From positions 717,067-781,066 of the forward strand of contig OZ220716.1 in the NCBI GenBank assembly GCA_965116795.1: 64,000 nt of DNA, written 5' to 3'. Made by a program: the position numbers and the translations under genes. The notes beneath the pieces are model-generated. The model was not told where the DNA came from. It saw only the letters and a list, made by a program, of their open reading frames with translations, and did no database searches. The stretch is from Gammaproteobacteria bacterium (GTDB lineage Bacteria > Pseudomonadota > Gammaproteobacteria > JAJFKG01). This document shows, in pieces, positions 6,280-59,311 of the stretch; the first letter of the stretch is position 1; each line of letters starts with the position of its first letter.

Positions 6280-6290
6280 ATGACAAAACA

Positions 6291-13542: not shown

Positions 13543-13581
13543 TGCATTTATCCTTGAAGAATGAAGTAATGTAAATACTGT

Positions 13582-18592: not shown

Positions 18593-18616
18593 GTGTATTC
18601 AAGATTATATTTAACA

Positions 18617-20191: not shown

Positions 20192-20408
20192 TAAAATCTA
20201 ATTTTTTAATTAATATTTAATTTTGATTAAATATGTTAGCTGGTGATAATTACTCAATTTTATCGATAAGGATTATATAATAGTACCCTAATTTACTCCT
20301 CAACATACTGCATATTACAGTGACTGTGATTGCTCCAAATCAGTGAGTTAAATTTTTTATATTTTTTATATCTATAATTTACTAAAAGACGAAGTATATA
20401 AAAATAGC

Positions 20409-21107: not shown

Positions 21108-21309
21108 GTATTTCCTTTTCTTTAGAACAATAAGCGTGTTTCTTTAGCTTGTCATTCTTTTTCAATAAGGTGGCCATTATATTATCGCTATATTAATACA
21201 TCAACTTTATCAAAATTTCTATACCTAATGCATTGCACTTCATATAACATAGCTTTAGCAATGATTTTGATAAAATTTAGGTTTTATGCCAAAGGTAAAA
21301 CGTGTTTTT

Positions 21310-21590
21310 AAGCATCTTAATGGATTTTTCTTGGTATGAAATGAAGTATTTAGCTAAACAGCTTAAAAGGCTTGTGCAATTTGAATCTCTATATACCGGG
21401 TGTCCTGTACTTTGTATTCACATCGACGAATTTTTGTAAACGATATTGAAAAGCCAGATGCTTTTGTGCAAGCAATAGGGTGTCGATCACCTGAACCACA
21501 TGGTCTTATAGTTGCTGATTTTCTGCTATGGCATAAAATAAATAAGGATTATACTTGGGGTGCCTTTGGAAGCTGTACTATAACGCGGGT
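21310..21590 (+). pseudogene. internal fragment of a GT2 glycosyltransferase paralogue (frameshifted and truncated)
   Basis: Two frames read ...AKQLKRLVQFESLYTGCPVLC / YSHRRIFVNDIEKPDAFVQAIGCRSPEPHGLIVADFLLWHKINKDYTWGAFGSCTI. These are colinear with residues around KRLTKFQTQHPGCAVLCYSHRRVFINGIEKSDGFVKAIGHKTPEPHDSMVADFLLWHKKVKNYVWGQFGSCTMM of the GT2 at 16733-17653. Homology stops abruptly at about 21586. Confidence 0.75.
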
Positions 21591-22020
21591 GTTGTTGATG
21601 GATATGGGCTTGGCGGGCGTTGTTTGCATTGCCATAAGGCAGCGCGCCTATTATCCACTGGCATAGCGTTTCTACTGACAATGTCAGTCCGTGAACTTCA
21701 GTCAATTTCTCATGAGCAAACGTTGGTCCGAAGTTAGAGTAATGGCTCTTTACCAGGGTCAGTGCTTGCTGTTTCAGTGTATCCGGAAAACGACGATTGC
21801 TTGGTTTGCCACAGTGTTTCGATTGCAAATCAGACGTGCCTTCTCGTTCGTAAGCACGGATTAATCGCCTTAATTGGCGAGTACTCAGACCCGATTACTC
21901 CGCTCCTGCAATCTGGCTCAGTTGCTTTGATTTTATCCGCTCTATCACCTGGGCTCGGCTTAGTTTCTGTTCGCTCATCGCATACCTCTGGTCTGTCATT
22001 TTTCTCTCCACTTCTAATAG
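21590..22020 (-). mobile_element. remnant of an insertion-sequence transposase gene (N-terminal HTH region only, frameshifted). Resembles ISNCY/IS1202-group transposase N-termini. No IRs or catalytic domain.
   Basis: The minus strand reads MSEQKLSRAQVIERIKSKQLSQIAGAE* then (-1) GLSTRQLRRLIRAYEREGTSDLQSKHCGKPSNRRFPDTLKQQALTLVKSHYSNFGPTFAHEKLTEVHGLTLSVETL... The local sequence is markedly more GC-rich than the flanking DNA. It abuts the GT2 fragment. Confidence 0.6.
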
Positions 22021-22166
22021 GTTAGTAATTACTAAAAGCGGGCATTTTAACTTGAGATAAACTGGACATTACTACTTCGGGCTAACACAGTAAAAATTAA
22101 GTTTACTGTGTGTTAACTATTGTTTACTATATTTATCGTGTTAGCTGATAGGAAATAAAATATATA

Positions 22167-23366
22167 ATGTTCATGATGGCTCGTTTAAAAGCAATAATTC
22201 AAGGAATTGTTCTTCGGTATTTAAAACCCTATTTTTCAGATTTATATCAGTATGATTCTAATGTAACTGTAGCAAAAGACGTTGAAGATTTTTTCAAAAC
22301 TTCTGATGGTCGTTCTATACTGGTTTCAAAACATCACAGATACAGCTTAAAACCAGCTTGGATGATGTTTGGTCCGATGAATGCTCTGAATGAACTGGAC
22401 AAGAAAGGTTTACTAAATGGAAATGACCGTCAATTTTTAGAAAATGTTAAAGGCTATAGAACAATTACATCATCTTTATCTGAAATAAGAAATGTATTAA
22501 AACCGTACCTCGAAAATTATGCCGATTTATTTTTAAATGCAAATATACCGAATCTTGGAATCCGTGTCTTAAAGCCAACAAAAGAAGAAGTAGAAGCGTG
22601 CATTGCCAAGAAAGTACAAATGCATAAAAAGCGTTTTGAAAAAATCAAGAAAATCGTTTCTTTTGTTAAACAGGAAAATATAAAAGTCCTTGAAGTTGGC
22701 TATACTTCAGGCGGGGAATCTATCATTGGTTTTGAACGTGTAGGTATGCAAGCTTATGGGTTAGACTATAGCTATAATAATGTGTTAGAAACGCATAATC
22801 GCCATGTTCAGGTTGCACGGCTTGCAAATTCAAAAGTGAAATTTTTAACTGGTGATATAACAAAAAAGACTTCAATAGAAGATAATTTTTTAGATTTTAT
22901 TTATACACAAAGTGTGTTAGAGCATATTCAAAATTTGCCGGATGCTTTTGCTGAAATGTATCGTATATTAAAGCCAGGTGGTGTAATGTACCATCGTTAT
23001 GATCCTTATTTTTATATTGGAGGAGGCCATCGCCCATGTACGCTTGATTCTCCTTGGGCACATATGCGCATGAACGATCAAGATATCGAAAAGTACATTT
23101 TGGAATTTCTGCCCAATGAAGCAGAAAGCACAATTCCATGGATCCGTAATGCATTAAATCGAAAACATACGCAAAGATTTGTTCAGAATTCTCTTATTCA
23201 ACAAGGTTTTCAGATTTGCTGGTGGCGGAGGCGTGAATTATCACAAAGATACAAAAAACTGCTCAGTCCCGAAATTATTTCAGATTGTTTAACAGTTAAT
23301 CCAGATGTATCGCTTATAGATCTGTTAAGTGACGAAGTTGCTTTTATCACTGTAAAACCACTCTAG
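22167..23366 (+). CDS. SAM-dependent methyltransferase-domain protein (399 aa, with N- and C-terminal extensions of unknown function)
   Basis: Central LEVGYTSGGESIIGFERVGMQAYGLDYS (motif I), ...ILKPGGVMY... (motif III). Confidence 0.65.
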   Translation: MFMMARLKAIIQGIVLRYLKPYFSDLYQYDSNVTVAKDVEDFFKTSDGRSILVSKHHRYSLKPAWMMFGPMNALNELDKKGLLNGNDRQFLENVKGYRTITSSLSEIRNVLKPYLENYADLFLNANIPNLGIRVLKPTKEEVEACIAKKVQMHKKRFEKIKKIVSFVKQENIKVLEVGYTSGGESIIGFERVGMQAYGLDYSYNNVLETHNRHVQVARLANSKVKFLTGDITKKTSIEDNFLDFIYTQSVLEHIQNLPDAFAEMYRILKPGGVMYHRYDPYFYIGGGHRPCTLDSPWAHMRMNDQDIEKYILEFLPNEAESTIPWIRNALNRKHTQRFVQNSLIQQGFQICWWRRRELSQRYKKLLSPEIISDCLTVNPDVSLIDLLSDEVAFITVKPL

Positions 23367-23436
23367 ATTTTTCTTCTGTAATGAAAAGTGTCTCGAGCAT
23401 TATTAAAAAATAACGTAACTACTCAGCTTCCGATTT

Positions 23437-24405
23437 TTGTTGTACCATAGTGTGGCAGGATATTGCACGATGACTTTACTAATCATTAATATGAGTTTTA
23501 TTACTGATTATTTTCAATGCAGCATATCAATTGTTAAGCAAAATATAGGATTCTACTCACAAACTATTCATTTGACTAAAAAAAATAAAGAATCTACAGA
23601 AATTTTTTTGGGAAAGATAATAATGGCTAGCCTATACGTTCATGGAAAGAGTTTTATTAATCGTCTTATATGGCTTAATTCTCTTATGAGGGGAATATTG
23701 CCTGCTGTGATATATCTTATCCAAGCACGTGGAAAACCAATGAAGATTGGCCATGCATTTTATAATAACGTAGAGTTAGAATTTCGTAATTGTGATTCCA
23801 CAGCTTTAAAAGAAGTTTTAGTTGATGCAGAATATAATTTTCTGAAAGAATTTTTGAAATCATCTCTGTCGCCTGTCATTGTAGATGTCGGCGCTCATAT
23901 AGGAACCTTTTCACTTTGGGTTTATTATCAGAACCCTAAAGTCAAAATGTTAATGGTAGAGGCTAATCCAACAAGTCATCAAATTCTCGTTCGCAATATT
24001 AGGAAAAACTTTTCTGCCAAACAGTACAAAATTCTCAACAAAGCTGCATGGAAGAATAATGACGTTTTAAAATTTTTTACAGCTGGTGACAGCATGGGGA
24101 ATAGAGTATCAGAAAAAGGAGATATTAAAGTTAGTGGTGTGACATTCGTTGAAATTGTTAATATGGTTATTGCAAATAATTCTTCAATTGACCTAATGAA
24201 AATTGATATTGAAGGAGCAGAAGAAGCTTTCTTTGAAACAGCAGATTTAGTATTAGATAAAGTAAGACGTCTTGTTATTGAATTACATCCTAAATATTGT
24301 AATACAGAATCTATTATACAAAAACTAGAGAGACGCTATAAACATATTAGAGAAATTTCTAGTCGTATAGATTCTAAGCCTCTTCTCTATTGCACAGATG
24401 AGTAA
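23437..24405 (+). CDS. FkbM-family methyltransferase. The probable true start is ATG 23623 (MASLYVHGK...).
   Basis: VIVDVGAHIGTFSLW and IDLMKIDIEGAEEAFF are the hallmark FkbM motifs. Confidence 0.75.
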   Translation: MLYHSVAGYCTMTLLIINMSFITDYFQCSISIVKQNIGFYSQTIHLTKKNKESTEIFLGKIIMASLYVHGKSFINRLIWLNSLMRGILPAVIYLIQARGKPMKIGHAFYNNVELEFRNCDSTALKEVLVDAEYNFLKEFLKSSLSPVIVDVGAHIGTFSLWVYYQNPKVKMLMVEANPTSHQILVRNIRKNFSAKQYKILNKAAWKNNDVLKFFTAGDSMGNRVSEKGDIKVSGVTFVEIVNMVIANNSSIDLMKIDIEGAEEAFFETADLVLDKVRRLVIELHPKYCNTESIIQKLERRYKHIREISSRIDSKPLLYCTDE

Positions 24406-24418
24406 AAATCATTTGTCT

Positions 24419-25522
24419 TTACATATACTCTTTTAATAAATTTTCCCACTTATCAAAGATTTTCTCAGGCTTATACTGCTTCATGGATTTAATAGCATTT
24501 ATACTAAACCGTTTTCTCTTTTCTGGTGAAAGCATCAATTCCTTTAAACAATAAGCTAGTGTCTCTGGGCTGCCATTCTGTTCTGCGAGTAAACCATTAT
24601 ATTCATGTTGTATTAATATATTCGTGCCATCGCAATCTTTATAACCAATGCAGGGTAACCCATGTGACATAGCTTCAGCAATAACATTTGGAAAACCTTC
24701 CCATTTTGATGGTAAAACAAATAAATGTGCTTGACAATAAAGCGAGCTAGTATTTTTTACGTTACCTTTAAATATTACTTGTTTAGTTAACTTTAATTTT
24801 TCAACTTCTGCTTCAAGCTGTATACGGTCTTCTCCATCACCTGCAAGCATTAATTGCCAATCAGGAAAGTCTTGATAAATTAAAGAAAATGCTTTTATTA
24901 AGGCATATTGATTTTTTTGGTATGCTAATCTACCAATGCAAAGTAATATTTTGTTTTTTGTATTTTCAGCTGGTTTTGCAAAATTAGTTGCAGGCAAGAC
25001 AGGATTTTCAATACAAATCATTTTATGGTGTAAAAATTTAGGGTAATCTTTTATATAGCTAGGAAGTTGGACAGTGATTTTATCTGCTAGTCTAAATGTT
25101 TGTAAGATAAAATTTCTTCTTGTACCAGATTTAGTATGATTTAAACGTGAAATGGCATTTCGTTCTGCTGCAATGATTGGGATCTTAAATCCAAATAAAA
25201 AGAACTTAAAACTAAGGAAGGCACCATGTTGAAATGCTAAGATAATGTCAGGTTTAATACGTTCCACAATTTTTCGCACTTTAAATGCTCTTTTAATACG
25301 TGTTAGCCAGTTTGCTTTTTTTAGATGGTTTTGTATATCCATTACATGCCAATCAATTTGATTATCTATTTTATAAAAAGCGTTTTTGGTATTCTCTTTA
25401 TCCCAGGTGAAAAGCGTTACATTATATTTCCGATTAACCATTTCATTCATGAGCATAATAGCCATGCGTTCAACACCACCAGCCATATTATTAAAAGAAC
25501 GACACACGAAAAGTATTTTCAT
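24419..25522 (-). CDS. glycosyltransferase, GT4 family (GT-B). Paralogous to 27486-28598.
   Basis: 367 aa. N-terminal MKILFVCRSFNNMAGGVERM. C-terminal PSKWEGFPNVIAEAMSHGLPCIG (E-X7-E region). Confidence 0.8.
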   Translation of the reverse strand: MKILFVCRSFNNMAGGVERMAIMLMNEMVNRKYNVTLFTWDKENTKNAFYKIDNQIDWHVMDIQNHLKKANWLTRIKRAFKVRKIVERIKPDIILAFQHGAFLSFKFFLFGFKIPIIAAERNAISRLNHTKSGTRRNFILQTFRLADKITVQLPSYIKDYPKFLHHKMICIENPVLPATNFAKPAENTKNKILLCIGRLAYQKNQYALIKAFSLIYQDFPDWQLMLAGDGEDRIQLEAEVEKLKLTKQVIFKGNVKNTSSLYCQAHLFVLPSKWEGFPNVIAEAMSHGLPCIGYKDCDGTNILIQHEYNGLLAEQNGSPETLAYCLKELMLSPEKRKRFSINAIKSMKQYKPEKIFDKWENLLKEYM

Positions 25523-26496
25523 CTTAATTTAACTTCTTTTCGCATATTTTTTTCATGAGACACTCGTTTTAAAATACTAGTTAGCATTCTGTTTGTAAGT
25601 AAAATAGGATGCAGTAACCATAAAATAATCATTAGTTTTACCATTTTAAAATGTTGGTTAGTAAAGTGGTAGAATCGAACTTTAGGCCATGTTTTTGCGT
25701 AAAAATATACTTTTTTTCTTTTTAAATACTTTTTATTTTTTTGTGCTAATAATGATTCTCCTTGTAGATTTTTCATTGGGGATTTATCTTGTGCATTTGT
25801 TGAATATTGTGTAAATAGATTCTCTTTACAACCAATGAAATATCCACCTTTAAATCCAAGCCGTATCGCAAAATCACAATCTTCTAATCTGCGTAGATTG
25901 GTATCAAATTTTCCAACAATATTGAAAGTTGTTTTCCTTGCCATTAAACAACATGTTGGTGTTCCTCTGCCATAAAATACCCCTTTTTCTTGCTTATAGT
26001 ACAGCAAATAGTCGACAATTTGTGTGCCTTGTGGTGGTAGAAGTTCTGATCCTATTGCAGTTAATTTTAAAGTATATCCATTTGAGTATAATCGATAACC
26101 CGAAGCGTAACATGCAATTAAATGTGTATTAAGTGATTTTTCATATGCAATAATATTATGATATTGTTTCGTTAGTCGATTTGGCATGCTCTCATCATCA
26201 TCGTCAAAAAATGCAATAAAATCGCCTTTAGCATTATTTATAATTGTATTCCTAGTGCTTCCTACGCCCATATTTTTTTTATGCATGATCAATGTAATTG
26301 GAATATGGTCATATTGCACCATAATAGAGTTAACAATGTTAACTGACTGGTCTGTTGAGCAATCATCCACAAGCACTATTTCAAAATTAGGCCAGTCTTG
26401 TTGTAGTGCACTTTTTACAGCTTTTGCAATAGTATCTTGTGCATTGTAACAAGTAATGCCGATAGTAATTAAAGAAGTGTAGTTGGCTTTTGGCAT
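25519..26496 (-). CDS. glycosyltransferase family 2
   Basis: SLITIGITCYNAQDTIAKAVKSALQQDWPNFEIVLVDDCSTD, DDDDE. Confidence 0.85.
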   Translation of the reverse strand: MPKANYTSLITIGITCYNAQDTIAKAVKSALQQDWPNFEIVLVDDCSTDQSVNIVNSIMVQYDHIPITLIMHKKNMGVGSTRNTIINNAKGDFIAFFDDDDESMPNRLTKQYHNIIAYEKSLNTHLIACYASGYRLYSNGYTLKLTAIGSELLPPQGTQIVDYLLYYKQEKGVFYGRGTPTCCLMARKTTFNIVGKFDTNLRRLEDCDFAIRLGFKGGYFIGCKENLFTQYSTNAQDKSPMKNLQGESLLAQKNKKYLKRKKVYFYAKTWPKVRFYHFTNQHFKMVKLMIILWLLHPILLTNRMLTSILKRVSHEKNMRKEVKLR

Positions 26497-27476
26497 TATT
26501 TCGCTATTCTCTTATAGAAAATGATTGAATGTAGATTTGTTTTTAGATTAGGTAATGCCCAACTAATTTTTCTAAGGGTTTTTATTGGGTATTGTAAAAA
26601 TAATATTAATATTTTAAGAAAAGGTATGAGTTTTTTACCTGCTAAAAACCTACACTTTATATCTTGCCATTTCTTACAAAACAGGTAAGAAAAGTATTTG
26701 TCTATAAATTCTTCATATTCATCTAGTAATTTTTGCCTGTAGAAAAATGTCTTTTCCAAATTCTTATCATTTGTATATGTCATTTTCTGAATAACTAATG
26801 CGTCTTTAATACCAATAACTTGGCCATTTGATAATCCGAGTCTAACGTTTAATTCAGTATCTTCTGATAATCTAAATGTTTCATCAAATAAACCTAATTT
26901 TTCATAAGTTATTTTCCTTCCCATCTGTGAGCAAGTTGCGCAGGCTCCATTTCCTGCTTTAGGGTATCCAAATAGAATTTTTCTTGCTATATCAAGCCCC
27001 GTTGGTGCTGGGAGTTTTTCGTTCGTTGCCATGGTTTGCACATATTGAAACTGTCTATCACAATATATTTGCTTTCTTGCTGTATGGCACAACAAATTCT
27101 TTTTATTATACTTTTTTTCATATTCAATTATTCTATAATATTGTCTTGTTAGCCTATTTGATAGACTTTGATCATCATCATCAAAGAAAGCAATAAAACT
27201 ACCCGATGCATTTTTTATAATTGTATTTCTAGCACCAGCGACGCCGGTGTTTTTTTTATGTATTATTAATTTAAAAGATATATTTTGATGTTGGGCTAAT
27301 ATATTATTGATATTTTTAACAGAATTGTCAGTAGAACAATCATCGACGATAACAATTTCAATGTTAGTCCAGGCTTGTTGTAAAGCACTTTTAATTGCAT
27401 CTTCTATAGTATCTTGTGCGTTGTAACAAGTGATGCCTACTGTAATTAATGGCATGGACTTCTGCTTGGTATTCAT
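26496..27476 (-). CDS. glycosyltransferase family 2
   Basis: PLITVGITCYNAQDTIEDAIKSALQQAWTNIEIVIVDDCSTD, DDDDQ. Near-identical N-terminal region to the adjacent GT2. Confidence 0.85.
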   Translation of the reverse strand: MNTKQKSMPLITVGITCYNAQDTIEDAIKSALQQAWTNIEIVIVDDCSTDNSVKNINNILAQHQNISFKLIIHKKNTGVAGARNTIIKNASGSFIAFFDDDDQSLSNRLTRQYYRIIEYEKKYNKKNLLCHTARKQIYCDRQFQYVQTMATNEKLPAPTGLDIARKILFGYPKAGNGACATCSQMGRKITYEKLGLFDETFRLSEDTELNVRLGLSNGQVIGIKDALVIQKMTYTNDKNLEKTFFYRQKLLDEYEEFIDKYFSYLFCKKWQDIKCRFLAGKKLIPFLKILILFLQYPIKTLRKISWALPNLKTNLHSIIFYKRIAK

Positions 27477-27485
27477 ATTAATTGC

Positions 27486-28598
27486 TTAATGAGAATGTAA
27501 ACATGGGTATGCTACTTTTTTAATTAACTTTTCCCACTGATCCACCACATTTTTTATACTATATTTCCCTAGCTCTTTTTTGGCTTGTTGGCCTAATCTT
27601 TCCCGTAATTGTTGTGAACATATCAATTGTTCAAGTCCTTGTGCAAAGGCATGCGCTTTATTTTGCCCACTAACTAAAATACCATTTTGATTGTTGGTAA
27701 TCAATTCATTGGTACCTGGACAATCTGCAAAACCAACAACAGGTAACCCATATAACATTGCTTCTGCAGTTACAAGTCCAACACTCTCATAAAGAGAAGG
27801 CATAGCAAATATAGTTGCTTTTGCATATTCTCTTTCTATATGTTGCGTACTTCCAGGTAAATGCACTCTATCTTGTAAATTATAATTTGTTATTAATTTT
27901 TCTAATGCTGGGCGCAGCTTACCTTCACCTATAATATGAACGTTCCAATCGGGGTATTTTTTCGCAAGTGAAGCGAAAGCATGAATCAGATCGGCGTGAT
28001 TTTTTTGGTTGTCTAAACTCCCAATACTTAAAATAATATTTCTATTATATTCTTTTTTGATTCCTTCAAAATTTTGTACTGGATTAGGAATGGATTGCAT
28101 TTTTCTTTTTATAAGCCAAGGATAACCACCCTTATTTTTTTTGGAAACAGCGGCAATAGTAATTTTTCTAAATTTTAGTTGTAATAATAAAAATAATAGT
28201 AGTACAAGCTTTCTATTTTTGTAATTTTGAAAAACATTATGTTCACTTGCAATTATTGGTGTTTTATCACCTAACATAGCCATACCCGTCGGTATAAACG
28301 TACTACACATAAACGGTATAATAACATCGGGTACTATTTCTTTGATAATTTTTCTCAGTCGATTTATTCGTTTGAATAAATCGATAAAGTTTGTTTGAAC
28401 TTGACTATTTCCTATATCAAGGAATAACAATTTTATTCTAGGATCAAAAGAGTAGAATGATTTGACTTCTTCTTTGTCAAATGTCAATAGATAAATTTGG
28501 TACCCTCTATTGACTAGTTCTTCACTAATATTTGCCAAGACTCTTTCTGCTCCACCGCCTTTGACTGCAATGGATTTAATCGTAAATAATAATTTCAT
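27486..28598 (-). CDS. glycosyltransferase, GT4 family (GT-B)
   Basis: 370 aa. MKLLFTIKSIAVKGGGAERV...; PSLYESVGLVTAEAMLYGLPVVG. Confidence 0.8.
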   Translation of the reverse strand: MKLLFTIKSIAVKGGGAERVLANISEELVNRGYQIYLLTFDKEEVKSFYSFDPRIKLLFLDIGNSQVQTNFIDLFKRINRLRKIIKEIVPDVIIPFMCSTFIPTGMAMLGDKTPIIASEHNVFQNYKNRKLVLLLFLLLQLKFRKITIAAVSKKNKGGYPWLIKRKMQSIPNPVQNFEGIKKEYNRNIILSIGSLDNQKNHADLIHAFASLAKKYPDWNVHIIGEGKLRPALEKLITNYNLQDRVHLPGSTQHIEREYAKATIFAMPSLYESVGLVTAEAMLYGLPVVGFADCPGTNELITNNQNGILVSGQNKAHAFAQGLEQLICSQQLRERLGQQAKKELGKYSIKNVVDQWEKLIKKVAYPCLHSH

Positions 28599-28790
28599 TT
28601 TACGCTACTTTTGCATAATGTTGCGTAATCATACACTGCCTATCGCTATACAGGAAATATCAGGAAGCACTTTGTTATGTTCTTCGAAAATAAATTTATC
28701 GTCCAAAATCCTTCCAAAATCCCTTGCCCTCCTGCCCTATTTCTGCTCTAATGCCTGCCTATTTTTCACCGCTTTGAAGGCAATTCATCA

Positions 28791-30164
28791 ATGAACGTTA
28801 CGGTTTATGGTGCAGGTTACGTGGGTTTGGTCACAGGTACATGTCTAGCCGATGTCGGCAATGATGTACTCATTGTTGATATCGATAAAGATAAAATAGA
28901 TCAGCTAAATCAAGGTGATGTACCCATCTATGAGCCTGGCTTACAAGAATTGCTCGTCAAAAATACTGCCACTGGACGTCTGCGTTTTACCACCGACCCC
29001 AAGCAAGGTGTTGCTCACGGTTTGTTTCAGTTCATTGCTGTTGGGACGCCACCTGATGCCAATGGCGCGGCTGATCTGCGTTATGTATTCGATGTGGCGG
29101 ATAAGATAGGTCAATATATGACCGAATATCGGATTATCGTCGATAAGTCGACAGTACCAGTTGGCACCGGTCAGCGGGTTATCGATACCATCCATAAAGC
29201 CCTTCACCAACGCCAACTCAACATACCCTTCGCTGTAGTCTCCAATCCTGAGTTTTTAAAAGAAGGGGCAGCATTAGCAGATTTCATGAAACCTGATCGG
29301 ATTATTGTGGGTACCGATTGCACGAAAGCAACTGAATTAATGCAAGCCTTATATGCACCGTTTAACCGCAATCATGATCGCTTTATGACAATGGATCGTG
29401 CGTCAGCTGAATTAACTAAATATGCCGCTAATGCATTACTGGCAACCAAAATCAGTTTCATGAATGAACTAAGTCACGTTGCTGAGCTCGTTGGTGCTGA
29501 CATTGAACATGTTCGTCGTGGTATTGGTTCGGATCCACGTATTGGTTATCATTTTATTTATCCAGGCTGTGGTTACGGTGGTTCATGTTTTCCAAAAGAC
29601 ATTAGTGCATTACGTACTACTGCTAATCAACATAGTTACAACCCTAGGTTGCTTAGCGCCGTTGAACAAGTCAATGATCAGCAAAAACAAGTCTTATTTA
29701 ACAAGATTACGCAGTACTATCAACATAAATTAGCGGGAAAAACATTTGCATTATGGGGATTAGCGTTTAAACCAAATACTGATGATATGCGTGATGCACC
29801 AAGTCGAGTGTTGCTCGAAGCGCTATGGCAAGCTGGTGCAGTGGTACAAGCGTATGATCCAGTTGCGATGGCAGAAGTGAAACGTATCTACGATGATCGC
29901 GATGATTTAGTTTTATGTGACACTGCACAAGCAGCGTTAACTAATGCAGATGCATTGATCATCGTTACCGAGTGGCGTGAGTTTTATACGCCGACATTTG
30001 CTTGGTTTACCCAGGAATTGCGTGAACCAGTTATTTTTGACGGACGTAATGTGTATGACCCGAGTTTTATGGCATCACAAGGTATACAGTATTTTGCAAT
30101 TGGCCGCGGTCAATCGATACAAACTAGTCAACACATTAAGCAGCCTGATCCAGATCTCGTGTAA
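28791..30164 (+). CDS. ugd: UDP-glucose 6-dehydrogenase
   Basis: [14 protein letters not shown] (NAD site), catalytic GGSCFPKD, 457 aa. Confidence 0.9.
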
Positions 30165-40429: not shown

Positions 40430-41074
40430 TTAATGCTCATTATATACTAACCGAATAGTAAAGCTCATCGGTTGTTGTACTTGATTAGGTGATAATGTCA
40501 TTGGTGATGCAGCTGTTAGCGTGTGTTGTGCTGCTTGATCAAGCAAGCTATTACCACTCGATTGTACGATATTAATGTCTTGGATCTTTCCAGTTGGTAA
40601 TAATTGAAATTGCAACCATACCGTGCCAGTTTGTTTACGTGCGGCTGCTAATGGTGGATAAAAATGATATTGTTGAATGTGGTTATGAATTAAAGTAAGC
40701 AATTCTGAATTACCTTGTTCAGTTAACTGACCACTGCCTGCAGTTGTATTGGTTGTCGCATTAGTAGTTTGCTTGTTTTTGTAATTGGTAGTGGCTGTTG
40801 TTTTAATTGATATTGATGATGGTGTGATTTTTGGTGTATGTGTTGGATTTAATTTGTGAAGTGTATGTGTGGTGCGTGTATTACTGCCTTTTACATGACG
40901 ATGTAATGCTGTCCATGGAAATAAATAAGAATGAATAAGATGTACATGAGGTGTTCCAGCACGCTGACTATTTTGATGTATAAAATTTAAAAATGTTAAG
41001 AATAGTATCCAATGCAATGCGATTGCGAGCAATAAACAAATAGCCAAACCTTTTTTTTGTTGCCAGTGTATCAT
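40430..41074 (-). CDS. tonB: TonB-family energy transducer. The probable start is the internal ATG 41072-41074 (protein MIHWQQKKG...), overlapping the upstream stop codon.
   Basis: N-terminal TM anchor, low-complexity spacer, C-terminal TonB domain (...GTVWLQFQLLPTGKIQDINIVQSSGNSLLDQAA...). Confidence 0.7.
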   Translation of the reverse strand: MIHWQQKKGLAICLLLAIALHWILFLTFLNFIHQNSQRAGTPHVHLIHSYLFPWTALHRHVKGSNTRTTHTLHKLNPTHTPKITPSSISIKTTATTNYKNKQTTNATTNTTAGSGQLTEQGNSELLTLIHNHIQQYHFYPPLAAARKQTGTVWLQFQLLPTGKIQDINIVQSSGNSLLDQAAQHTLTAASPMTLSPNQVQQPMSFTIRLVYNEH

Positions 41075-43020
41075 AGGAATCGATAATGTATAGTTAATAA
41101 AAAATTTCGTCTTGGCGCTGGGTAATAACCCAGTGATGATGCCCAAGGTTGAAATACGACATAATTGTAATATTTCTTATTAGTAATGTTATTAATACGG
41201 CTTGTTACTCCAAATCCTTTGTATTGATAATGGATTGCTGCATTATATATAGTATAGCCGCCGATTAGATGTTTATTCTCATCATCGCCCGCTGCAAACA
41301 TTTTTCCAGTAAAAATAGTTTCTGCTAATAATTGCCAATGAGTAAATAAATGATAATTGGCTGATATACGTGCCATATTTTTGGCAACGAATGGGATCTG
41401 CTTGCCTGAAAAAGGGCCACTGGAATAGTGACCATCGGTATACGTATAATTACCGTTTAGTGTTAATCGTGGGATCACATTTAATCTACTATCCAATAAC
41501 AATCCACGACGACGAGTTGGGTCGAGATTACGGTTTGTTGCTATTCCATGACGATTATGATCTGGTGGCATATATGCAATTTCGTTACGCAAATTAAGTT
41601 GATAAACTGCAGCACTGAGTTGATATTGTGTCGATTGCCAACGAACCCCAATTTCATAGGAAACGCCAGTTTGTGTTTTCAGGGCGTTAATCTGATTAGG
41701 ATGTATATTGTTTTGTTCATCTACTTTTGGAAAGCGATAATTACCACTGCGACGAACATAACCAGTTAATTGTGGAATAAATTGATACTGTAAGCCTAAC
41801 TCAGATACCCATGCGTTGTTATCAAATTGTTTCCCATTAAGTTTTCCTTGTAGCCATGCACCACGTGTACCAATGATTGTCTGCAAATGTTGCCCAATCG
41901 GTAATTGTAATTGGGTATAAACTGATTGCTTAGCTTGTTTATCATTGATGTTATATTGGTTATGTGGGGTTGTGTTGAGTGAATAACAATCATGTTCGAA
42001 ATTGGCACCAAATCGCCAAGTCAGCGGCCGTTTAAATAACCGATAATGCGCAATTAACAATGGATTTATTTGCATACTATTACGCGATTGAGTTAATTCA
42101 AATGTGGTATATGTGCTGTCTCCATGCGTCCACCATTGCGATAAATCGGTTTGTAGTGACCAGTGTGGGGTTAGCCAATGTTCAAATCCACCGGTTAAGA
42201 TAGTGCTAGTATCGTCTGCAAAATCATGTTTTCTATCAGGATCAACACCGCGACGATCAGTATTGAGTTGTTTTTTGGTTACACTCCCTGGCAAATTAAC
42301 ATCATGTTGACGATATTGCCCTTGAATAAATGCAGAGCCACGATCGTAACGATAACCAAGCCGTAACGAACTACCACCAGTATCTAATTGATTATGTTTG
42401 CGATAGTTATTACTAACATGCTTGTCACTGTCGACTTGTATGTTTATACCATTGCTAAACATATTTGCTGCACTTGCATATGCATCAATTGTTTGATAGC
42501 TACCATATTGTAATGACGTTTTGCCAGCTAATTTGTCTGCTTGTTGAGTAATAATGTTAATAACACCGCCAACGGCTTGATCACCATATAATACGCCAGC
42601 ACTGGCTGGGAAAATTTCAATACGTTGTATACTAGCTAATGGAATCGTACTTAAGTCAGCTCCTGCCATATCTGGGTTAGTTAAACGTCTGCCGTCGACT
42701 AGGATTAACGTATTTTGTGTAGCATTACTGCCAAAACCACGCATACTAATGGTTGCTCGTTGCAGGTCATTACTGCTCGTATAAACGCGTAAGCCAGGTT
42801 GGCCATTAAGTAATTGTACTAAGCTGCTAGCACCGCTGTTATTAATTTGAGTTCTATTAATGATGGTTGTATTTGCTAATTCAGTTAGTACTGTTGTTGA
42901 TTGTTGTGGTGCAGTAACGATTACATCAGGTACAGGTATCGGTGTTGCTGTTGCAGCAAACGTTGCATGAACTGATAATAATAAAATAAAAGTAATAACG
43001 TAATAGTACTTACTATGCAC
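41071..43020 (-). CDS. btuB: TonB-dependent outer-membrane receptor, BtuB-like (vitamin B12 / corrinoid transporter)
   Basis: Signal peptide; TonB box PDVIVTA (compare BtuB DTLVVTA); C-terminal ...HYRFL beta-barrel terminus. A cobalamin riboswitch lies in the 5' leader. Confidence 0.8.
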   Translation of the reverse strand: MHSKYYYVITFILLLSVHATFAATATPIPVPDVIVTAPQQSTTVLTELANTTIINRTQINNSGASSLVQLLNGQPGLRVYTSSNDLQRATISMRGFGSNATQNTLILVDGRRLTNPDMAGADLSTIPLASIQRIEIFPASAGVLYGDQAVGGVINIITQQADKLAGKTSLQYGSYQTIDAYASAANMFSNGINIQVDSDKHVSNNYRKHNQLDTGGSSLRLGYRYDRGSAFIQGQYRQHDVNLPGSVTKKQLNTDRRGVDPDRKHDFADDTSTILTGGFEHWLTPHWSLQTDLSQWWTHGDSTYTTFELTQSRNSMQINPLLIAHYRLFKRPLTWRFGANFEHDCYSLNTTPHNQYNINDKQAKQSVYTQLQLPIGQHLQTIIGTRGAWLQGKLNGKQFDNNAWVSELGLQYQFIPQLTGYVRRSGNYRFPKVDEQNNIHPNQINALKTQTGVSYEIGVRWQSTQYQLSAAVYQLNLRNEIAYMPPDHNRHGIATNRNLDPTRRRGLLLDSRLNVIPRLTLNGNYTYTDGHYSSGPFSGKQIPFVAKNMARISANYHLFTHWQLLAETIFTGKMFAAGDDENKHLIGGYTIYNAAIHYQYKGFGVTSRINNITNKKYYNYVVFQPWASSLGYYPAPRRNFLLTIHYRFL

Positions 43021-43204
43021 TAGCTAAGCCCTCCGCAAAGCGTTTATGAAACATAACAGTCTGCTACTGTATGTTGAGTTAGTCTTTAAAATTCAACATT
43101 CATTGCAGATGTGAGACTATGCGGATAGGTCTCCGGGCTTATAAGTAGCACTATACTTTTTAAGTATTCATCAAATTGCACATTAACCAATTCCTTCCCA
43201 TACA

Positions 43205-43348
43205 ATAAAACACAGTGGCTAATTTGGCTAATGCTGTATTAAACAATAATACAGATCCTTATTTACCGTTGCGGGGGCAGCGTTGGCTTTATAGGCTTTG
43301 GGTTAATACGCAAAGCCACCAACTTCCCTACATCATCAAATTACTATT
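43205..43348 (-). ncRNA. cobalamin (AdoCbl) riboswitch in the btuB leader
   Basis: The minus strand reads ...GGGAAGTTGGTGGCTTTGCG...CCAACGCTGCCCCCGCAACGGTAAAT...(48 nt)...GCCACTG. The conserved GGGAA/GGTG core, the GCCCCCGCAACGGTAA element and the B12 box GCCACTG are present in the expected order. Confidence 0.8.
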
Positions 43349-43509
43349 ATCGATAATGTGCTAGTTCAATAGCATCCGACGGCAGGCACTCTAGATCAGA
43401 GTCTAATGACTGTCAAATTGGTAATGTAATGATTGGCTGAATAGTTACAATTTGAGTAGCTATTCAGTCGATCTTTACGTTACCAAAAAACGTCAGCTTT
43501 GAGTGGAGG

Positions 43510-43584
43510 TTGTCAGAAAATGTAAATAAAAAAGCGCAGTGTATTAGGCATACATGAGCACTTTTTATTTACATTTTCTGACAA
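43510..43584. repeat. long near-perfect palindrome (about 24-bp arms: TTGTCAGAAAATGTAAATAAAAAAG … CTTTTTATTTACATTTTCTGACAA, 26-nt loop)
   Basis: Read directly. Located between the divergent btuB leader and the cNMP-binding gene. Confidence 0.6.
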
Positions 43585-43747
43585 GATCCGCCAAAGATGG
43601 CGTTTTCCTTAGTAGTGCCTAAGTAGTTACCTCAAATTGACTATATTGATATACCTATAAGTGGAATGAGAATTGCATATTGCTCCGGACTCAAATAATA
43701 CCCAACTGCATGGATCTGAATTAATTAACTGTAAGGCAAGTAAGCTG

Positions 43748-44176
43748 ATGATTACCCTAGAAAAAATTTTAATTCTCAAAAGTGTTGATCTGTTTAAAGA
43801 AACACCTGACGAATTATTGACAGATATTGCTAATGTGCTGCATATGCGTACAGCTAGTCGTGATGAAACAATTATCCATGCTGATGAACCAGGTAACTCA
43901 ATGTTTATTATTGTTGAAGGTAAAGTACGTGTACATCGAGGTAAGCAAACGTTAGCAACATTAGGTGTACACGATGTATTTGGTGAATTATCTGCACTCG
44001 ATCCTGAACCACGTGTTGCTTCTGTATCTGCGTTGGAAGATGTATTGTTATTTGTGATTAGACGTGAAGAATTGTATGAAATCATGAGTCTTAATGTTGG
44101 CATTACACGTGGGATCATCAAAGTATTATGTAATCGTATTCGTTCAATTTCCAAGCAATTAATGGTCATGAAGTAA
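43748..44176 (+). CDS. cyclic-nucleotide-binding domain protein (single CAP-family effector domain). The track ORF extends upstream to 43673.
   Basis: ...FGELSALDPEPRVASVSALEDVLLFVIRREELYEIM... is a cNMP-binding beta-roll with the phosphate-binding cassette (FGELSAL...RVASVSA). Confidence 0.75.
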   Translation: MITLEKILILKSVDLFKETPDELLTDIANVLHMRTASRDETIIHADEPGNSMFIIVEGKVRVHRGKQTLATLGVHDVFGELSALDPEPRVASVSALEDVLLFVIRREELYEIMSLNVGITRGIIKVLCNRIRSISKQLMVMK

Positions 44177-44177
44177 G

Positions 44178-47003
44178 ATGCAATTAGAAGATCCTGACTT
44201 ATCATCTCATATATCACATCAGCAGCATAAATCGATTGCGCACAGTAAGAGAATTGCAGTCTGTATTGCTAATGGAACATTGTCTGGTTTTAATCAGACA
44301 TTATTGCTCATTTTACCTATTGCTATCTTCTTGCCAATATTTAGCATTAATACGTTGCCATTTGTTTATGTAAGCATAATACTCATTAATTTCATTTTAC
44401 ATAAAGCACATGGAAAATTTAGCAAACATATTAGTTCAGCAAAGCCAACATTTTTCTACAGTATTTTAAGTGCTTTGCTTATTTTGGCACTGTGGTGGGA
44501 TTTAGTTTATTACACTCATTTGTGGGCGAGTTTTGCGTTGTTAATTGTATCAATCCCATTGATTAGCCTTAGTAACTTACAATTAAATGAATTAAATCGT
44601 TCATTATTACTGAATAACATGTATAGCATCCATCGTGCTGTCAATATTTGTCAGCTGGCAGCTATTGGGGTAGGTGGACTTATAGTTCCATTATTAGTGC
44701 TAACTTTTGGGGTGATTAACAGTTTATTAGTATTGTGCGTTAGCTTGTTGGCTCATAGTTTCTTTGTTTGCTTCTCACCAAAAATTTCTTTTAAAGCAGA
44801 TGAAGATATCGTTAAAAGCCATTTTGATCACCATGGGTCGCGTGCACTTACCATTTATATCATGAAGCTCATTGCTTATTCTGGAATGGGTGTATTTTGT
44901 TTTTACTTTATTAATATATTGTTTAATTCTATTGTGAAAGCAGAATTTATTTATCCAGATAATATCGCTATATTCTTGGGAGGATTTTTTTCTTTAATTG
45001 GCTTTGCATCATTGGCATTACACGTTTTTATCAATAAGTATTTAGTCAATCGTTTAGGGATCGCTATTTTATTAAATTTATGGCCTATTTTAATTATTGC
45101 TTGCAGTGCGATAATTATTGTGTTTATGCCTACTGCTTATATTATCGTTCCAGCAATTATCAGTTTGCAATTCATTGATGAAATGTTAAGAAGAGGTACA
45201 CTAAGCGAGATCCAAAGCTTGATTTACCAACCACTCTCTCCAGATGATCGAAGTTGGCTTGAAAATGACGTTAGGCCTGTTGTACGACTTATCGTAGGAT
45301 TTATCGCTAGTATGTTGATTCTTGTCTTAGACGCTAATTATGGAATGAATATTACCATGCTTATTACTGGTGTAATTATTGTTTCTGCCGCAATGTTATA
45401 TTTAATTCCAAGCATTAAAAAATTATATACCCTAAATTTAGTAAAGGCGCTGGGCAAACATCATTTAATTTCTCCTGATTTTACTATTCTTGATAAAACT
45501 AGTCTTAATATATTGAAGTCAGGACTTAAAAGTACACACACTGAGGTAGCCTTGTATAGTTTAGATGTGCTTGAAAAAACTAATGCACGGTTTTTACCGG
45601 AAGCAATTGAATACTGTTTACATCATGACAGAAGTGTTATACGAAAACGTGCACTTAATAAAGTGCGAAAACATAATTTTTTTCATTTGCGTAATGATGT
45701 GATTCGTTGTGCTCAAGATGATATTAGCGCAGATGTTCGGGGAGAAGCATTAATTACGTTAGGTACAATCGTTGGTGCAGGTGCAATTCCAATGATAAAA
45801 CGCTATACAGATAGTGATGAACCTGCTATACGTTCGAGTGCGATTATTAGTCTATTACAATCTTGTGGAACAGATGGTGCGTTGCTGGCTTCAGATAAAT
45901 TACATGCAATGGTTGAATATCCACTGCCAAGCGAACGTATATTGGCTGCTAAAATATTATTAGCTATTGATATTCGTGAATTTCATAATGCACTTAAAAA
46001 ATTGCTACATGACGATAATAATGAAGTGCGTAAGGCTGCATTAGAAGTGGCAAGTAAAGTCCCAGATCCAGAAATTATTAATACATTAATTGATTGTCTT
46101 AATTATCCACAATTGCGAGTGACAGCAATACGAACACTTAGCAAATTTAATAAGTTAGTTATTCCTAAATTAGCTGTTGCATTGGAAGAAAGTGAAAGTG
46201 TTCCAGATGTATTTAGAAGTATTACTATTGTGTTAAGTCAAATTGATTCGCCGATGTCTCGTGATCTCCTGTACCACTATATCGATAATTCCAATGCAAA
46301 ATTACGACATAGCTGTTTGGCAGCGCTACATCAGTATCATTTTAAAGCAACTAGTGATGCAGTTAATACAAAAATAAATAGTCTATTGAAAATGGAGGCA
46401 TCAATTTGTATTGAAATATTAGAAACACTGGCTGATATTGAAAAGTCTAATGCAACATTTTTATTAATTAACTTATTAGAATCACAGTTTAAGCAGCAGC
46501 AAGAAAATATAATCTATTTGTTATCATTCCATTATCCGGAAAAAGGTATTATGCGTGCATGGGATAATTTGCAGTCTAGTGATAAAAAGACTTCTGAATA
46601 TGGTATTGAATTGTTGGAGGGTTTGTTAACAGTTTCACATAAAATGTTGTTGATTCCGTTGCTTGAAAATAAGACGGTCTCTGAGAGAATTCAACGATTG
46701 CCACAATCACAAATGCATCAACAACAAGGTATGCCTAGTAGATTGCGTTATATTCTGCAAAGGAATACATATTTTAATCCATTAATTCAAGCCAGTGCAT
46801 TGTATGCGGCGACCTACATGAAGTTGAATGATATAGTGAGAATTGCTGAAGAAAAAATACAGAATCCAAATCCAATTATTCGTGAAACGGCATTATGGAC
46901 GTTATGGTTTTGTCGTCATATTAACTTTGCACAGCATGCAAAACGTTTATTAACCGACCCACATCCTACTGTAGCTAATGTAGCCAAAATACTTATGCGT
47001 TAG
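44178..47003 (+). CDS. 941-aa fusion of an N-terminal multi-pass transporter-like membrane domain with C-terminal HEAT/PBS-lyase-type repeats. Whether the membrane domain is NTT/TLC-like (ATP:ADP antiporter / MFS-like fold) is undetermined.
   Basis: About 430 aa with roughly 11-12 hydrophobic helices, then repeated about 30-aa units (…RSVIRKRALNKVRK…, …ADVRGEALITLGTIVGAGAIP…, …EPAIRSSAIISLLQ…, …NEVRKAALEVASKV…). The ATG is 2 nt after the cNMP gene stop. Confidence 0.6.
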   Translation: MQLEDPDLSSHISHQQHKSIAHSKRIAVCIANGTLSGFNQTLLLILPIAIFLPIFSINTLPFVYVSIILINFILHKAHGKFSKHISSAKPTFFYSILSALLILALWWDLVYYTHLWASFALLIVSIPLISLSNLQLNELNRSLLLNNMYSIHRAVNICQLAAIGVGGLIVPLLVLTFGVINSLLVLCVSLLAHSFFVCFSPKISFKADEDIVKSHFDHHGSRALTIYIMKLIAYSGMGVFCFYFINILFNSIVKAEFIYPDNIAIFLGGFFSLIGFASLALHVFINKYLVNRLGIAILLNLWPILIIACSAIIIVFMPTAYIIVPAIISLQFIDEMLRRGTLSEIQSLIYQPLSPDDRSWLENDVRPVVRLIVGFIASMLILVLDANYGMNITMLITGVIIVSAAMLYLIPSIKKLYTLNLVKALGKHHLISPDFTILDKTSLNILKSGLKSTHTEVALYSLDVLEKTNARFLPEAIEYCLHHDRSVIRKRALNKVRKHNFFHLRNDVIRCAQDDISADVRGEALITLGTIVGAGAIPMIKRYTDSDEPAIRSSAIISLLQSCGTDGALLASDKLHAMVEYPLPSERILAAKILLAIDIREFHNALKKLLHDDNNEVRKAALEVASKVPDPEIINTLIDCLNYPQLRVTAIRTLSKFNKLVIPKLAVALEESESVPDVFRSITIVLSQIDSPMSRDLLYHYIDNSNAKLRHSCLAALHQYHFKATSDAVNTKINSLLKMEASICIEILETLADIEKSNATFLLINLLESQFKQQQENIIYLLSFHYPEKGIMRAWDNLQSSDKKTSEYGIELLEGLLTVSHKMLLIPLLENKTVSERIQRLPQSQMHQQQGMPSRLRYILQRNTYFNPLIQASALYAATYMKLNDIVRIAEEKIQNPNPIIRETALWTLWFCRHINFAQHAKRLLTDPHPTVANVAKILMR

Positions 47004-47247
47004 TATTCTTTTTACTGTTAATTCAAGCGTTAAATTTAGTTTTAAGTAATAAGCTTAAATAGTTAAATGTTAGTTTACTCATAGCCAAATTCATAATATA
47101 TATTTCTATTGCGGAATCCAACTAAGCCAGGTAGGGTATATACTTCGTTGCAGCTCAAATAGTTCGTCGCTTCTATTTGTGACATTTTTAAATGCAATCA
47201 GTATAATGCTATTATCAATGCAAGTGCTTAGGGGGTTTGACAAAATA

Positions 47248-57773: not shown

Positions 57774-58424
57774 ATGGCAATACGTTTGCAGCAACATGCT
57801 TATCCAGTTATTGACATCATAATTAAAGAAGCAGCTGATGATGTACAAGCCGATGGTGATACGATTAGTTGTCATAAAGGTTGTGATCATTGTTGTCACT
57901 TATTAGTAGAAGTATCGACTGCCGAAGCTAAAGAAATGGCATATTGGTTGTTACAACAACCTGAAGATGCTCGTGCTATGTTTTTGCAACGGATCCAACA
58001 CAATGCTGCTGAGGCAAAAGAATTATTTTTGCAATCTCGTCGTGATAAGCAATATGTTGGACGTGTCTTTGATGATGAAGCAGAAATTTCCGAAGCTACT
58101 CATGATGCTTATTTTTACGATAAAAAACGGCCGTGCCCATTTTTGGCACCAGAAGGACATTGTCTTGCTTATGAAGTACGTCCTAGTGCATGCCGAATGC
58201 ATTTAGTTACTTCACCTGCTGAATTATGTTCAGTTGAAGCTGGTGAAACAGATGATTATGAAATTCCTGATCGTATTGAAGACATGCGTGATGAAATTGC
58301 GCCCATTAACAGTGCTGTTAACGTCGAGCAAGGTTGGGGACAAATGTCGATCATGGTAGAGTTGGCGTTGGCTGATATTGCCCAAGAACAAGCAACCGGT
58401 GTTCCAGAGACTGCAGAAAATTAA
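57774..58424 (+). CDS. YkgJ-family (CxxCxxCC, UPF0153) zinc/iron-chelating domain protein
   Basis: CHKGCDHCCHLL and later CPFL…GHCLAYEVRPSACR cysteine clusters. Confidence 0.65.
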   Translation: MAIRLQQHAYPVIDIIIKEAADDVQADGDTISCHKGCDHCCHLLVEVSTAEAKEMAYWLLQQPEDARAMFLQRIQHNAAEAKELFLQSRRDKQYVGRVFDDEAEISEATHDAYFYDKKRPCPFLAPEGHCLAYEVRPSACRMHLVTSPAELCSVEAGETDDYEIPDRIEDMRDEIAPINSAVNVEQGWGQMSIMVELALADIAQEQATGVPETAEN

Positions 58425-59311
58425 GCGCTAGTTATTTTTTCCACTAAATCTGCAACGCAATAACCTACGTTAGCTTTTTTCGCACGATACATCGCTAAGT
58501 CAGCTTGATGTAGTAACAATTCAGCATTATTACCATCCTTTGGATAGACAGCAATCCCAACGCTAACATTAATTAAAATATCATCACTGCCCAATTGAAA
58601 TGGTGTTGCTAAGGCTACTAATAAACGTTCAGCGACAATGGTTGCTGAATTTACATCAGCAATGTGTGTTAATAGTACGACAAATTCATCACCACCTAAG
58701 CGAGCAACCGTGTCAACATTACGTATACACGTTTGTAACCTTGTTGCTATTGTTTTTAATAACGTATCACCATATTGATGGCCATATTTATCATTAATCA
58801 ATTTAAAGTTGTTGATATCTAACATCAGTAACGCAAATTGTTGTTGATAACGCTGACAGTAAGCAAGTGTTTGTTGTAATCTGTCTTGTAATAACTGACG
58901 ATTTGGTAAACCGGTTAATACATCATGGTTGGCCAATTTAACTAATTTCATTCTAATCTGATGCCGTAAAATAGCACAATCAATGGCATGCATTAGTGTA
59001 TGTGGATTAATATTTTTTTTGATTAAATGATCTTGCGCACCCATTTTTATCATTGATGATACACATGATTCATCATCCTTATCGTTGATAATGATAAGTG
59101 GCATTTCTGGATAATACGTTTGCATATAATGCAGTATTGTTTTATCTGGCTCAATTAACATAGCGTCAGATGACTGTATAGTAACTGTTGTTAATTCAGA
59201 TAGTTTTGTAATGTGAATTAATTTAAAAGTATTACCAGTATTTAGAAAAGTGCTAACTTCTCCAAAATTTTCTGGGTTGTTTGTTATATATAAAATAGTT
59301 TGCATAGACAT
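58421..59311 (-). CDS. diguanylate cyclase: degenerate receiver-like N-terminal domain plus GGDEF domain
   Basis: The GGDEF motif (RLGGDEFVVLL) is intact. The N-terminal about 120 aa has a CheY-like pattern, but the acidic pocket (DD) is replaced (…YITNNPEN…). Confidence 0.8.
   Translation of the reverse strand: MSMQTILYITNNPENFGEVSTFLNTGNTFKLIHITKLSELTTVTIQSSDAMLIEPDKTILHYMQTYYPEMPLIIINDKDDESCVSSMIKMGAQDHLIKKNINPHTLMHAIDCAILRHQIRMKLVKLANHDVLTGLPNRQLLQDRLQQTLAYCQRYQQQFALLMLDINNFKLINDKYGHQYGDTLLKTIATRLQTCIRNVDTVARLGGDEFVVLLTHIADVNSATIVAERLLVALATPFQLGSDDILINVSVGIAVYPKDGNNAELLLHQADLAMYRAKKANVGYCVADLVEKITSA

Follow-up and report, generated by a model that had tools for sequence, protein, structure and literature searches.

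Proteins in which a membrane domain of the NTT type is joined to HEAT repeats were recognised as a monophyletic NTT-HEAT clade by Major, Embley & Williams in 2017 (Genome Biol Evol 9:480, PMC5381601), who found the family to be widespread in free-living bacteria and present also in Chlamydia trachomatis, cyanobacteria and oomycetes. [quoted passage not shown] A literature search found no functional work on NTT-HEAT(/cNBD) proteins later than that paper. The subject of the present analysis is a two-gene locus at positions 43748-47003 of a 64-kb stretch of gammaproteobacterial DNA (contig OZ220716.1; the whole stretch is hereafter called the window), in which the gene for a 142-amino-acid (aa) protein of the cyclic nucleoside monophosphate (cNMP)-binding family directly precedes that of a 941-aa NTT-HEAT protein. 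There is very little doubt that the two products belong to the NTT-HEAT(/cNBD) family, and the locus is a divergent, split and motif-deficient member of this large and uncharacterised group. The system is thus not new in kind, having been described by comparative genomics in 2017, and the word "undescribed", applied to it in a first-pass annotation of the window, had to be dropped, since NTT-HEAT, NTT-HEAT with an adjacent cNBD and the triple fusion are all reported in PMC5381601.

The features of the locus are the following.

43748-44176, + strand: gene of the stand-alone cyclic-nucleotide-binding protein (cNBD subunit), 142 aa; open reading frame (ORF) from the ATG at 43748, Pfam match
43979-44026, + strand: phosphate-binding cassette of the cNBD, aa 78-93, FGELSALDPEPRVASV, with G79, E80, R89 and A91 intact
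44174-44180, + strand: gene junction TAA-G-ATG (stop TAA at 44174-44176, one G, ATG at 44178), as read from the sequence
44178-47003, + strand: gene of the NTT-HEAT protein, 941 aa; ORF with full-length collinearity to family members
44178-45455, + strand: NTT/TLC-like membrane domain, aa 1-426, with 12 transmembrane (TM) helices in a 6+6 arrangement (hydropathy, AlphaFold2, profile and Foldseek)
44574-44681, + strand: degenerate TLC signature region, aa 133-168, ...LQLNELNRSLLLNNMYSIHRAVNICQLAAIGVGG (alignments to the family and to canonical NTTs)
45480-47003, + strand: cytoplasmic HEAT-repeat solenoid, aa 435-941, about 14 helical hairpins (Pfam, PDB sequence matches and Foldseek)

Both ORFs lie on the + strand exactly where the first-pass annotation had placed them; the gap between them, for which it had given 2 nt, measures 1 nt.

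Architecture and kinship of the 941-aa protein

Hydropathy and the AlphaFold2 model agree in placing twelve hydrophobic TM helices at aa ~30-414, six on either side of a central loop at aa 201-223, and in the model these are followed by about 28 helices over aa 435-940; the mean predicted local distance difference test score (pLDDT) of the whole protein is 79, and most of the HEAT solenoid lies between 85 and 93. The loops on the predicted cytoplasmic side carry 16 Lys and Arg residues and those on the other side only 1, so that both termini and the HEAT solenoid can be assigned to the cytoplasm and, therefore, to the same compartment as the soluble cNBD. The C-terminal half is recognised by Pfam as HEAT_2 (PF13646, E 3e-21, in three stretches), HEAT (PF02985, 1e-7) and Cnd1, its PDB sequence matches being alphaRep proteins and its Foldseek matches the PP2A A subunit, karyopherins and alphaRep.

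The nature of the membrane domain emerges at the level of the family. Indeed, a search of the PDB with the single 941-aa sequence yielded only a marginal NTT match (E 0.97), whereas a profile of the whole family retrieved solved ATP/ADP translocases across the entire membrane domain (9j3n, 3e-21; 9j3j, 1.4e-18). When a profile of the membrane domain only was run against the whole PDB, its sole matches were these same two NTTs (9j3n, 3e-22; 9j3j, 7e-19), and no MFS transporter other than an NTT appeared at E <= 10. Furthermore, Foldseek aligned the predicted structure with AtNTT1 containing bound ATP (9j3l_A; E 1.6e-5, target-normalised TM-score 0.67, root-mean-square deviation 5.1, 472 columns); the first 50 matches included no other membrane protein and consisted otherwise of HEAT scaffolds. 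The membrane domain of the 941-aa protein is, as judged from profile homology and modelled fold, of the NTT type. The first-pass annotation, which had proposed a multi-pass domain of ~430 aa, considered that it might be NTT/TLC-like, in which case the whole would match the NTT-HEAT class, and described the last ~500 aa as HEAT repeats, was borne out on each of these points.

Full-length collinearity is seen with P0064, the best match of the 941-aa protein (E 5e-84, with 25.6% identity across 926 columns, in a blastp search giving 157 matches), and its relatives form a family of proteins of 1,000-1,300 aa. A word-indexed protein search had returned 6 and then 12 of them, and the family was revealed by an exhaustive HMMER search of 1.84 billion representatives, in which the best 150 representatives at 50% identity all had E < 1e-210, nearly all spanning all three domains and some carrying a second cNBD. 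Neither 5.8 billion clusters, nor the best 150 of the 1.84 billion representatives, nor a scan of the JGI metagenomes contained a relative of the 941-aa protein above ~26% identity or otherwise close to it. The NTT-HEAT body is only 21-26% identical to its relatives, the corresponding value for the free cNBD against the fused ones being 42-52% over its whole length, about twice as high. Membership in the family is indicated by the 12-TM NTT-type domain, the C-terminal HEAT repeats, the full-length collinear homology and the adjacent cNBD gene; the RQGKRLFG signature, which was derived in the present analysis and is not a published criterion of the family, is absent.

Two further peculiarities of the family were noticed. 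In some loci a tandem duplication of a HEAT segment of ~275 aa (profile positions 665-939) brings the NTT-HEAT protein to 1,200-1,330 aa, with a separate cNBD gene following (L003, L008, L012-L015, L024, L025, L030, L037, L039, L041, L042, L050, L056, L059 and L060, mostly Desulfobacterales), and in Acidobacteriota/Vicinamibacteria a second NTT-HEAT paralogue is found ~3 kb downstream of the fused gene (L002, 8290-10410; L020, 8278-10410; L045, 9600-10394).

The cNBD subunit and its linkage to NTT-HEAT

The 142-aa protein matches Pfam cNMP_binding (PF00027) with E 6e-21 and 74.7 bits, the cut-off being 27.5. An upstream TTG at 43673 could serve as an alternative start, and homology to relatives begins only at the ATG at 43748. 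The NCBIfam models of CRP, FixK and FtrB are covered only over approximately positions 8-141 of their 214-236, that is over their N-terminal cNMP halves, and neither Pfam nor NCBIfam detects a helix-turn-helix, a DNA-binding domain or any other output domain of the kind that would identify a CRP/FNR regulator; since the protein ends after the C-helix, without a helix-turn-helix, it cannot be a DNA-binding regulator. Its ligand site is intact. In fact, G79, E80, R89 and A91 of the phosphate-binding cassette occupy invariant columns of the family cNBD alignment and match the cassettes of the cyclic-nucleotide-binding domains of PKG and PKA-R, and 12 of the 14 cNBD positions conserved at >=90% in the family are retained, the ligand-contact residues among them.

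In three of the first six relatives found (P0001, P0002 and P0006) a cNBD is fused after the HEAT repeats, and the free cNBD of the window shares 42% identity over its whole length with the C-terminal cNBDs fused in P0001 and P0002, reaching 50-52% with other cNBDs of the family; free and fused cNBDs are orthologous, and the fused relatives provide, at the level of protein sequence, a Rosetta-stone link between the free cNBD and NTT-HEAT. When a single representative genome of each species, a set that does not include the host genome of the window, was scanned with the cNBD alignment, 289 loci distributed across many phyla were confirmed, and gene order was counted in the best 80 of them, which were retrieved through their cNBD. 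The domain is fused to NTT-HEAT in 26 of these 80, encoded directly downstream in 42 and directly upstream in 1, the remaining 11 being cut by a contig end or unclear. The genomic linkage of cNBD and NTT-HEAT, which the first-pass annotation had made the touchstone of its proposal together with the absence of a match to some other well-characterised transporter family, is thus near-obligate, and on neither count was anything found that contradicts the proposal. No third neighbour, be it a cyclase, a phosphodiesterase or any other gene, is conserved across phyla around the 80 loci, where only lineage-specific synteny is seen, and the functional unit is therefore the pair itself.

The order of the two genes in the window, in which the cNBD comes first, is rare, for in 42 of the 43 split loci examined the cNBD lies downstream of NTT-HEAT. 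The single upstream case, L057 from Chloroflexia, ranks 177th of 235 matches to the window protein and is not a close relative, so that the cNBD-first order arose independently in two lineages. The operon is compact, and the spacer of 1 nt is consistent with translational coupling of the two genes. The codon composition of the pair resembles that of the neighbouring genes, and the pair is accordingly regarded as native to its host genome.

An antisense ORF of 196 aa at 43627-44217 (- strand) overlaps the cNBD gene; its translation is of low complexity, no support for it was found and it is most likely spurious. Elsewhere in the family, two cNBD ORFs of 237 aa and 149 aa stand in tandem in L004 (4204-5411); the 4 kb upstream of them showed no NTT-HEAT ORF, and this subtype of cNBD may be used there on its own.

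Proposed mechanism and competing explanations

The locus is probably an NTT-HEAT-cNBD module in split form, that is a two-subunit assembly regulated by a cNMP, and its most likely role is that of a cNMP-regulated carrier or membrane sensor. In the mechanism envisaged, both genes would be co-transcribed and translationally coupled, and the 941-aa protein would reside in the inner membrane through its 12-helix carrier domain of the NTT/TLC type (an MFS-type fold) with both ends in the cytoplasm, where the ~500-aa HEAT solenoid would project as a docking and transmission element. The 142-aa protein, the detached equivalent of the cNBD that many relatives bear at the end of the HEAT solenoid, would dock on the HEAT platform, and the binding of cAMP or cGMP at its intact phosphate-binding cassette would cause a conformational change in the HEAT/carrier assembly; this change, in turn, would control either the membrane domain's activity or that of a different output recruited by the HEAT scaffold. 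The regulatory hypothesis published for the family in PMC5381601 is the same. The form of the mechanism in which a carrier is what is being regulated is proposed from the sequences with a confidence just below the halfway mark; the physical contact between the subunits, the ligand, the transported substrate and the direction of regulation are all inferred.

A number of observations weigh against this mechanism. In the first place, it is derived wholly from domain logic, no member of the NTT-HEAT clade having been characterised for transport or for cNMP binding. Residues 1-430 match no Pfam family at E <= 1, neither TLC nor MFS_1, and no NCBIfam family either, a result that makes the judgement of the first-pass annotation that the fold could not be assigned a fair one. 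As to the sensor, the cassette Arg is followed by Val, where most family members have Ser, the sequence does not discriminate between cAMP and cGMP as ligands, and no cyclase for the cNMP was found in the 64-kb window.

The most serious objection concerns the signature of the carrier itself. NTT-HEAT proteins share, in the cytoplasmic TM4-TM5 loop, the motif W.L.GR.F.[VI]RQGKRLFGLIG.GE, with which the canonical NTT signature FWGFAN..EAK[RK]FY.LFG.G can be aligned and at which the window protein reads LQLNELNRSLLLNNMYSIHRAV. The K-R pair of this motif is common to the NTT-HEAT family and to canonical NTTs, including both solved NTTs, and its K and R are each 99% conserved in 155 family members; both are replaced in the window protein. 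The other two frames of the signature region conceal no motif, being full of stops, and the loss of the pair cannot therefore be attributed to a frameshift or a sequencing artefact. The pLDDT falls to 58-65 at the degenerate motif, and the membrane domain as a whole retains only 9 of the 14 positions conserved at >=90%, a fraction that averages 0.96 in the family with a minimum of 0.79; the corresponding count for the HEAT domain is 10 of 11. With the K-R pair lost, nucleotide transport may be altered or lost in the window protein.

These data are the starting point of the alternative that survives best, namely that transport by the membrane domain has ceased in this lineage and the domain serves as a membrane anchor or receptor (a "transceptor"), the real output of the system being that the HEAT scaffold recruits partners in a cNMP-dependent manner. 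We regard it as unlikely, yet worth serious consideration. The disappearance of a pair so strictly conserved, the low pLDDT around the place where it should be and a membrane domain eroded below the family minimum, while the HEAT domain and the cNBD with its ligand site are preserved, speak for it; the role of the K-R pair is, on the other hand, assumed, the 12-TM fold is confidently predicted and there are no close relatives on which selection could be measured. Moreover, positions that are invariant in the family persist in the C-terminal half of the carrier (F266, G268, F270, R292, G294, P303, Y350, P352 and R358), as does the second motif, which reads IYQPL...R where canonical NTTs have YIPLD...K. 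A broader formulation, in which sensor and HEAT are under constraint and the membrane domain, having lost a basic pair otherwise conserved from the ATP/ADP translocases of plastids and chlamydiae to the entire NTT-HEAT clade, has become either a carrier-derived receptor or a carrier of a new substrate, possibly a cyclic nucleotide, seems to us just as doubtful, or slightly more so. Were it correct, one would have in this protein a natural "transceptor" intermediate, and the primary output of the module would pass through HEAT and cNBD and not through nucleotide import.

Could the resemblance to NTTs reflect nothing but the MFS fold shared by a generic carrier of some non-nucleotide substrate? 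The families TLC and MFS_1 are related to each other, the NTT-HEAT clade has no known substrate, and Pfam assigns MFS_1 and not TLC to P0001, exactly at the cut-off, and to P0006, below it. Yet P0002 passes the TLC threshold (30 bits vs 21), the motifs of the family align with the TLC-specific AK[RK]FY and YIPL, the membrane-only profile that picked out the two NTTs at 3e-22 and 7e-19 left every other MFS protein of the PDB beyond E 10, and AtNTT1 is ranked by Foldseek above any other membrane protein. An explanation by fold alone is, in the light of these results, quite improbable.

Hardly better placed, and in our opinion very improbable, is the idea that the 941-aa protein is a classical ATP/ADP antiporter of the Npt/Tlc kind, by which an intracellular bacterium such as Chlamydia or Rickettsia lives as an energy parasite. 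The closest solved structures are indeed ATP/ADP translocases, the genome is small (a contig of 2.45 Mb) and of low GC, and one of the transketolase matches at 66% identity comes from a Legionellales metagenome-assembled genome; the protein, however, has no Pfam TLC match and only a degenerate TLC signature, blastp already indicated its placement inside the NTT-HEAT clade, away from Npt1/Tlc1, the clade stands apart from canonical NTTs and is frequent among free-living bacteria, and an ordinary autonomous metabolism is encoded in the window. That the pair is a decaying remnant losing its function, as its extreme divergence (<=26% identity to anything) and the loss of a near-invariant motif might suggest, is scarcely credible, given that the frame of 941 codons is intact beside other frames full of stops, which excludes a compensated frameshift, that HEAT and cNBD are conserved within the range of the family, that the tight coupling junction is preserved and that the fold is confidently predicted.

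Genomic surroundings and known systems

The elements flanking the pair are these.

40430-41146, - strand: TonB-like gene, the listed ORF overlapping the 3' end of the receptor gene by 76 nt
41071-43020, - strand: TonB-dependent receptor gene, adjoining the riboswitch
43107-43369, - strand: cobalamin riboswitch, 58 bits, upstream of the receptor gene
43418-43486, intergenic: inverted repeat 2, 31-nt arms with 84% complementarity
43505-43589, intergenic: inverted repeat 1, 23-nt perfect arms at 43510-43532 and 43562-43584 (28 nt at 93%), 29-nt loop
43646-43673, + strand: candidate sigma-70-type promoter TTGATA-16-GAGAAT, a weak consensus match only
47166-47183, + strand: terminator-like hairpin after the 941-aa gene, likely the 3' end of the operon
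47179-47207, + strand: strong promoter-like site for the next gene, following the terminator-like hairpin

The promoter at 43646-43673 is given as a candidate only, because promoter-like sites in the region do not exceed those of shuffled sequences. The gene that follows the operon encodes an SLT_4 transglycosylase and is unrelated to it. On the other side, the riboswitch, the receptor and TonB look like an ordinary vitamin B12-uptake unit, which is transcribed divergently from the cNBD/NTT-HEAT pair and whose adjacency had been correctly pointed out by the first-pass annotation under the name of a B12-riboswitch btuB-tonB unit. A functional link of the pair to riboswitch, btuB or tonB was considered and rejected, no evidence for it having been found and the conservation of neighbours being limited to the pair. 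The long palindrome at 43510-43584 that the annotation had described as bracketing the pair is real, its hairpin having a folding energy of -49 kcal/mol (z = -9.7), but it is a single element situated upstream, on one side only. Neither inverted-repeat arm sequence recurs elsewhere in the window, and the intergenic repeats could possibly represent an operator, an element resembling repetitive extragenic palindromes or miniature inverted-repeat transposable elements (REP/MITE-like), or a transcription barrier.

The host is a low-GC gammaproteobacterium represented by the 2.45 Mb contig, whose transketolase shares no more than 72% identity with any other sequence (~66% to entries from Legionellales, Xanthomonadaceae and Nitrococcus); to judge from such comparisons, the lineage is deep-branching and poorly sampled. 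The autonomous metabolism encoded in the window comprises transketolase, GAPDH, aldolase and the synthesis of haem and ubiquinone, and type IV pili are encoded as well.

Some other genes of the window may be recorded here. The only nucleotide-second-messenger enzyme among its annotated ORFs is a GGDEF diguanylate cyclase (58421-59311, - strand), ~11 kb from the operon and with no evidence of a link to it. A stretch at ~12400-28600 has a GC content of 0.31-0.35, compared with about 0.40 elsewhere in the window; it holds ORFs for glycosyltransferases, an NAD-dependent epimerase and a PglK/MsbA-like ABC exporter (12415-16514) together with a GMC-family oxidoreductase-like ORF (18617-20191), a UDP-glucose 6-dehydrogenase being encoded just downstream (28791-30164), and looks like a cluster for surface polysaccharide or lipopolysaccharide, possibly acquired horizontally. 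At 7336-8784 (+ strand) an ORF of 482 aa joins an ABC permease domain (BPD_transp_1) to a substrate-binding lipoprotein domain of the NlpA/MetQ type and adjoins the gene of a NIL-domain-containing, MetN-like ATPase (6261-7343), an apparent fusion of permease and binding protein in a methionine-type importer.

What can be gained from this locus depends on how it stands with respect to systems already described. The NTT-HEAT-cNBD family is large and without experimentally known function, and it likely represents second-messenger control of a membrane protein of the nucleotide-carrier type. To the published comparative genomics the window adds little; it offers a naturally split pair of sensor and carrier-scaffold, convenient for binding and reconstitution experiments, and a natural variant devoid of the K-R pair that could help to separate transport from signalling in the family.

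With the family described in PMC5381601 the locus shares the NTT-like 12-TM domain, the HEAT solenoid and a PF00027 cNBD, which in the family is either adjacent or fused. It differs in having the cNBD gene upstream, whereas the paper describes it downstream, in an identity that does not exceed 26% and in the absence of the K-R signature. The 12-TM fold and a homology detectable at profile level are common to the window protein and the canonical NTT/TLC carriers (TC 2.A.12; PF03219; AtNTT1 and the bacterial ADP,ATP carrier protein 1; 9j3j/9j3l/9j3n), as is the second motif, YIPL.. in the latter and YQPL.. in the former. The canonical NTTs, however, possess neither a HEAT domain nor a cNBD partner, and the window protein has no Pfam TLC match and a degenerate FWxFAN..EAK[RK]FY.

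In the channel MlotiK1, in the CNG and HCN channels and in the sperm Na+/H+ exchanger SLC9C1, a cytoplasmic cNBD of the CAP type couples the level of cAMP or cGMP to membrane transport. The system proposed here would be alike in its logic, and structures of the MlotiK1 cNBD are among the PDB sequence matches of the 142-aa protein. The membrane domains are nevertheless unrelated, those of the former being channels or a CPA exchanger and not an NTT/MFS carrier, and while their cNBD is joined through a C-linker, that of the window is a separate polypeptide and is accompanied by a 500-aa HEAT solenoid. Finally, the CRP/FNR transcription factors have in common with the window protein a homologous cNMP-binding beta-barrel and the conserved phosphate-binding cassette, from which they go on to a helix-turn-helix, whereas the window protein ends at 142 aa without one.

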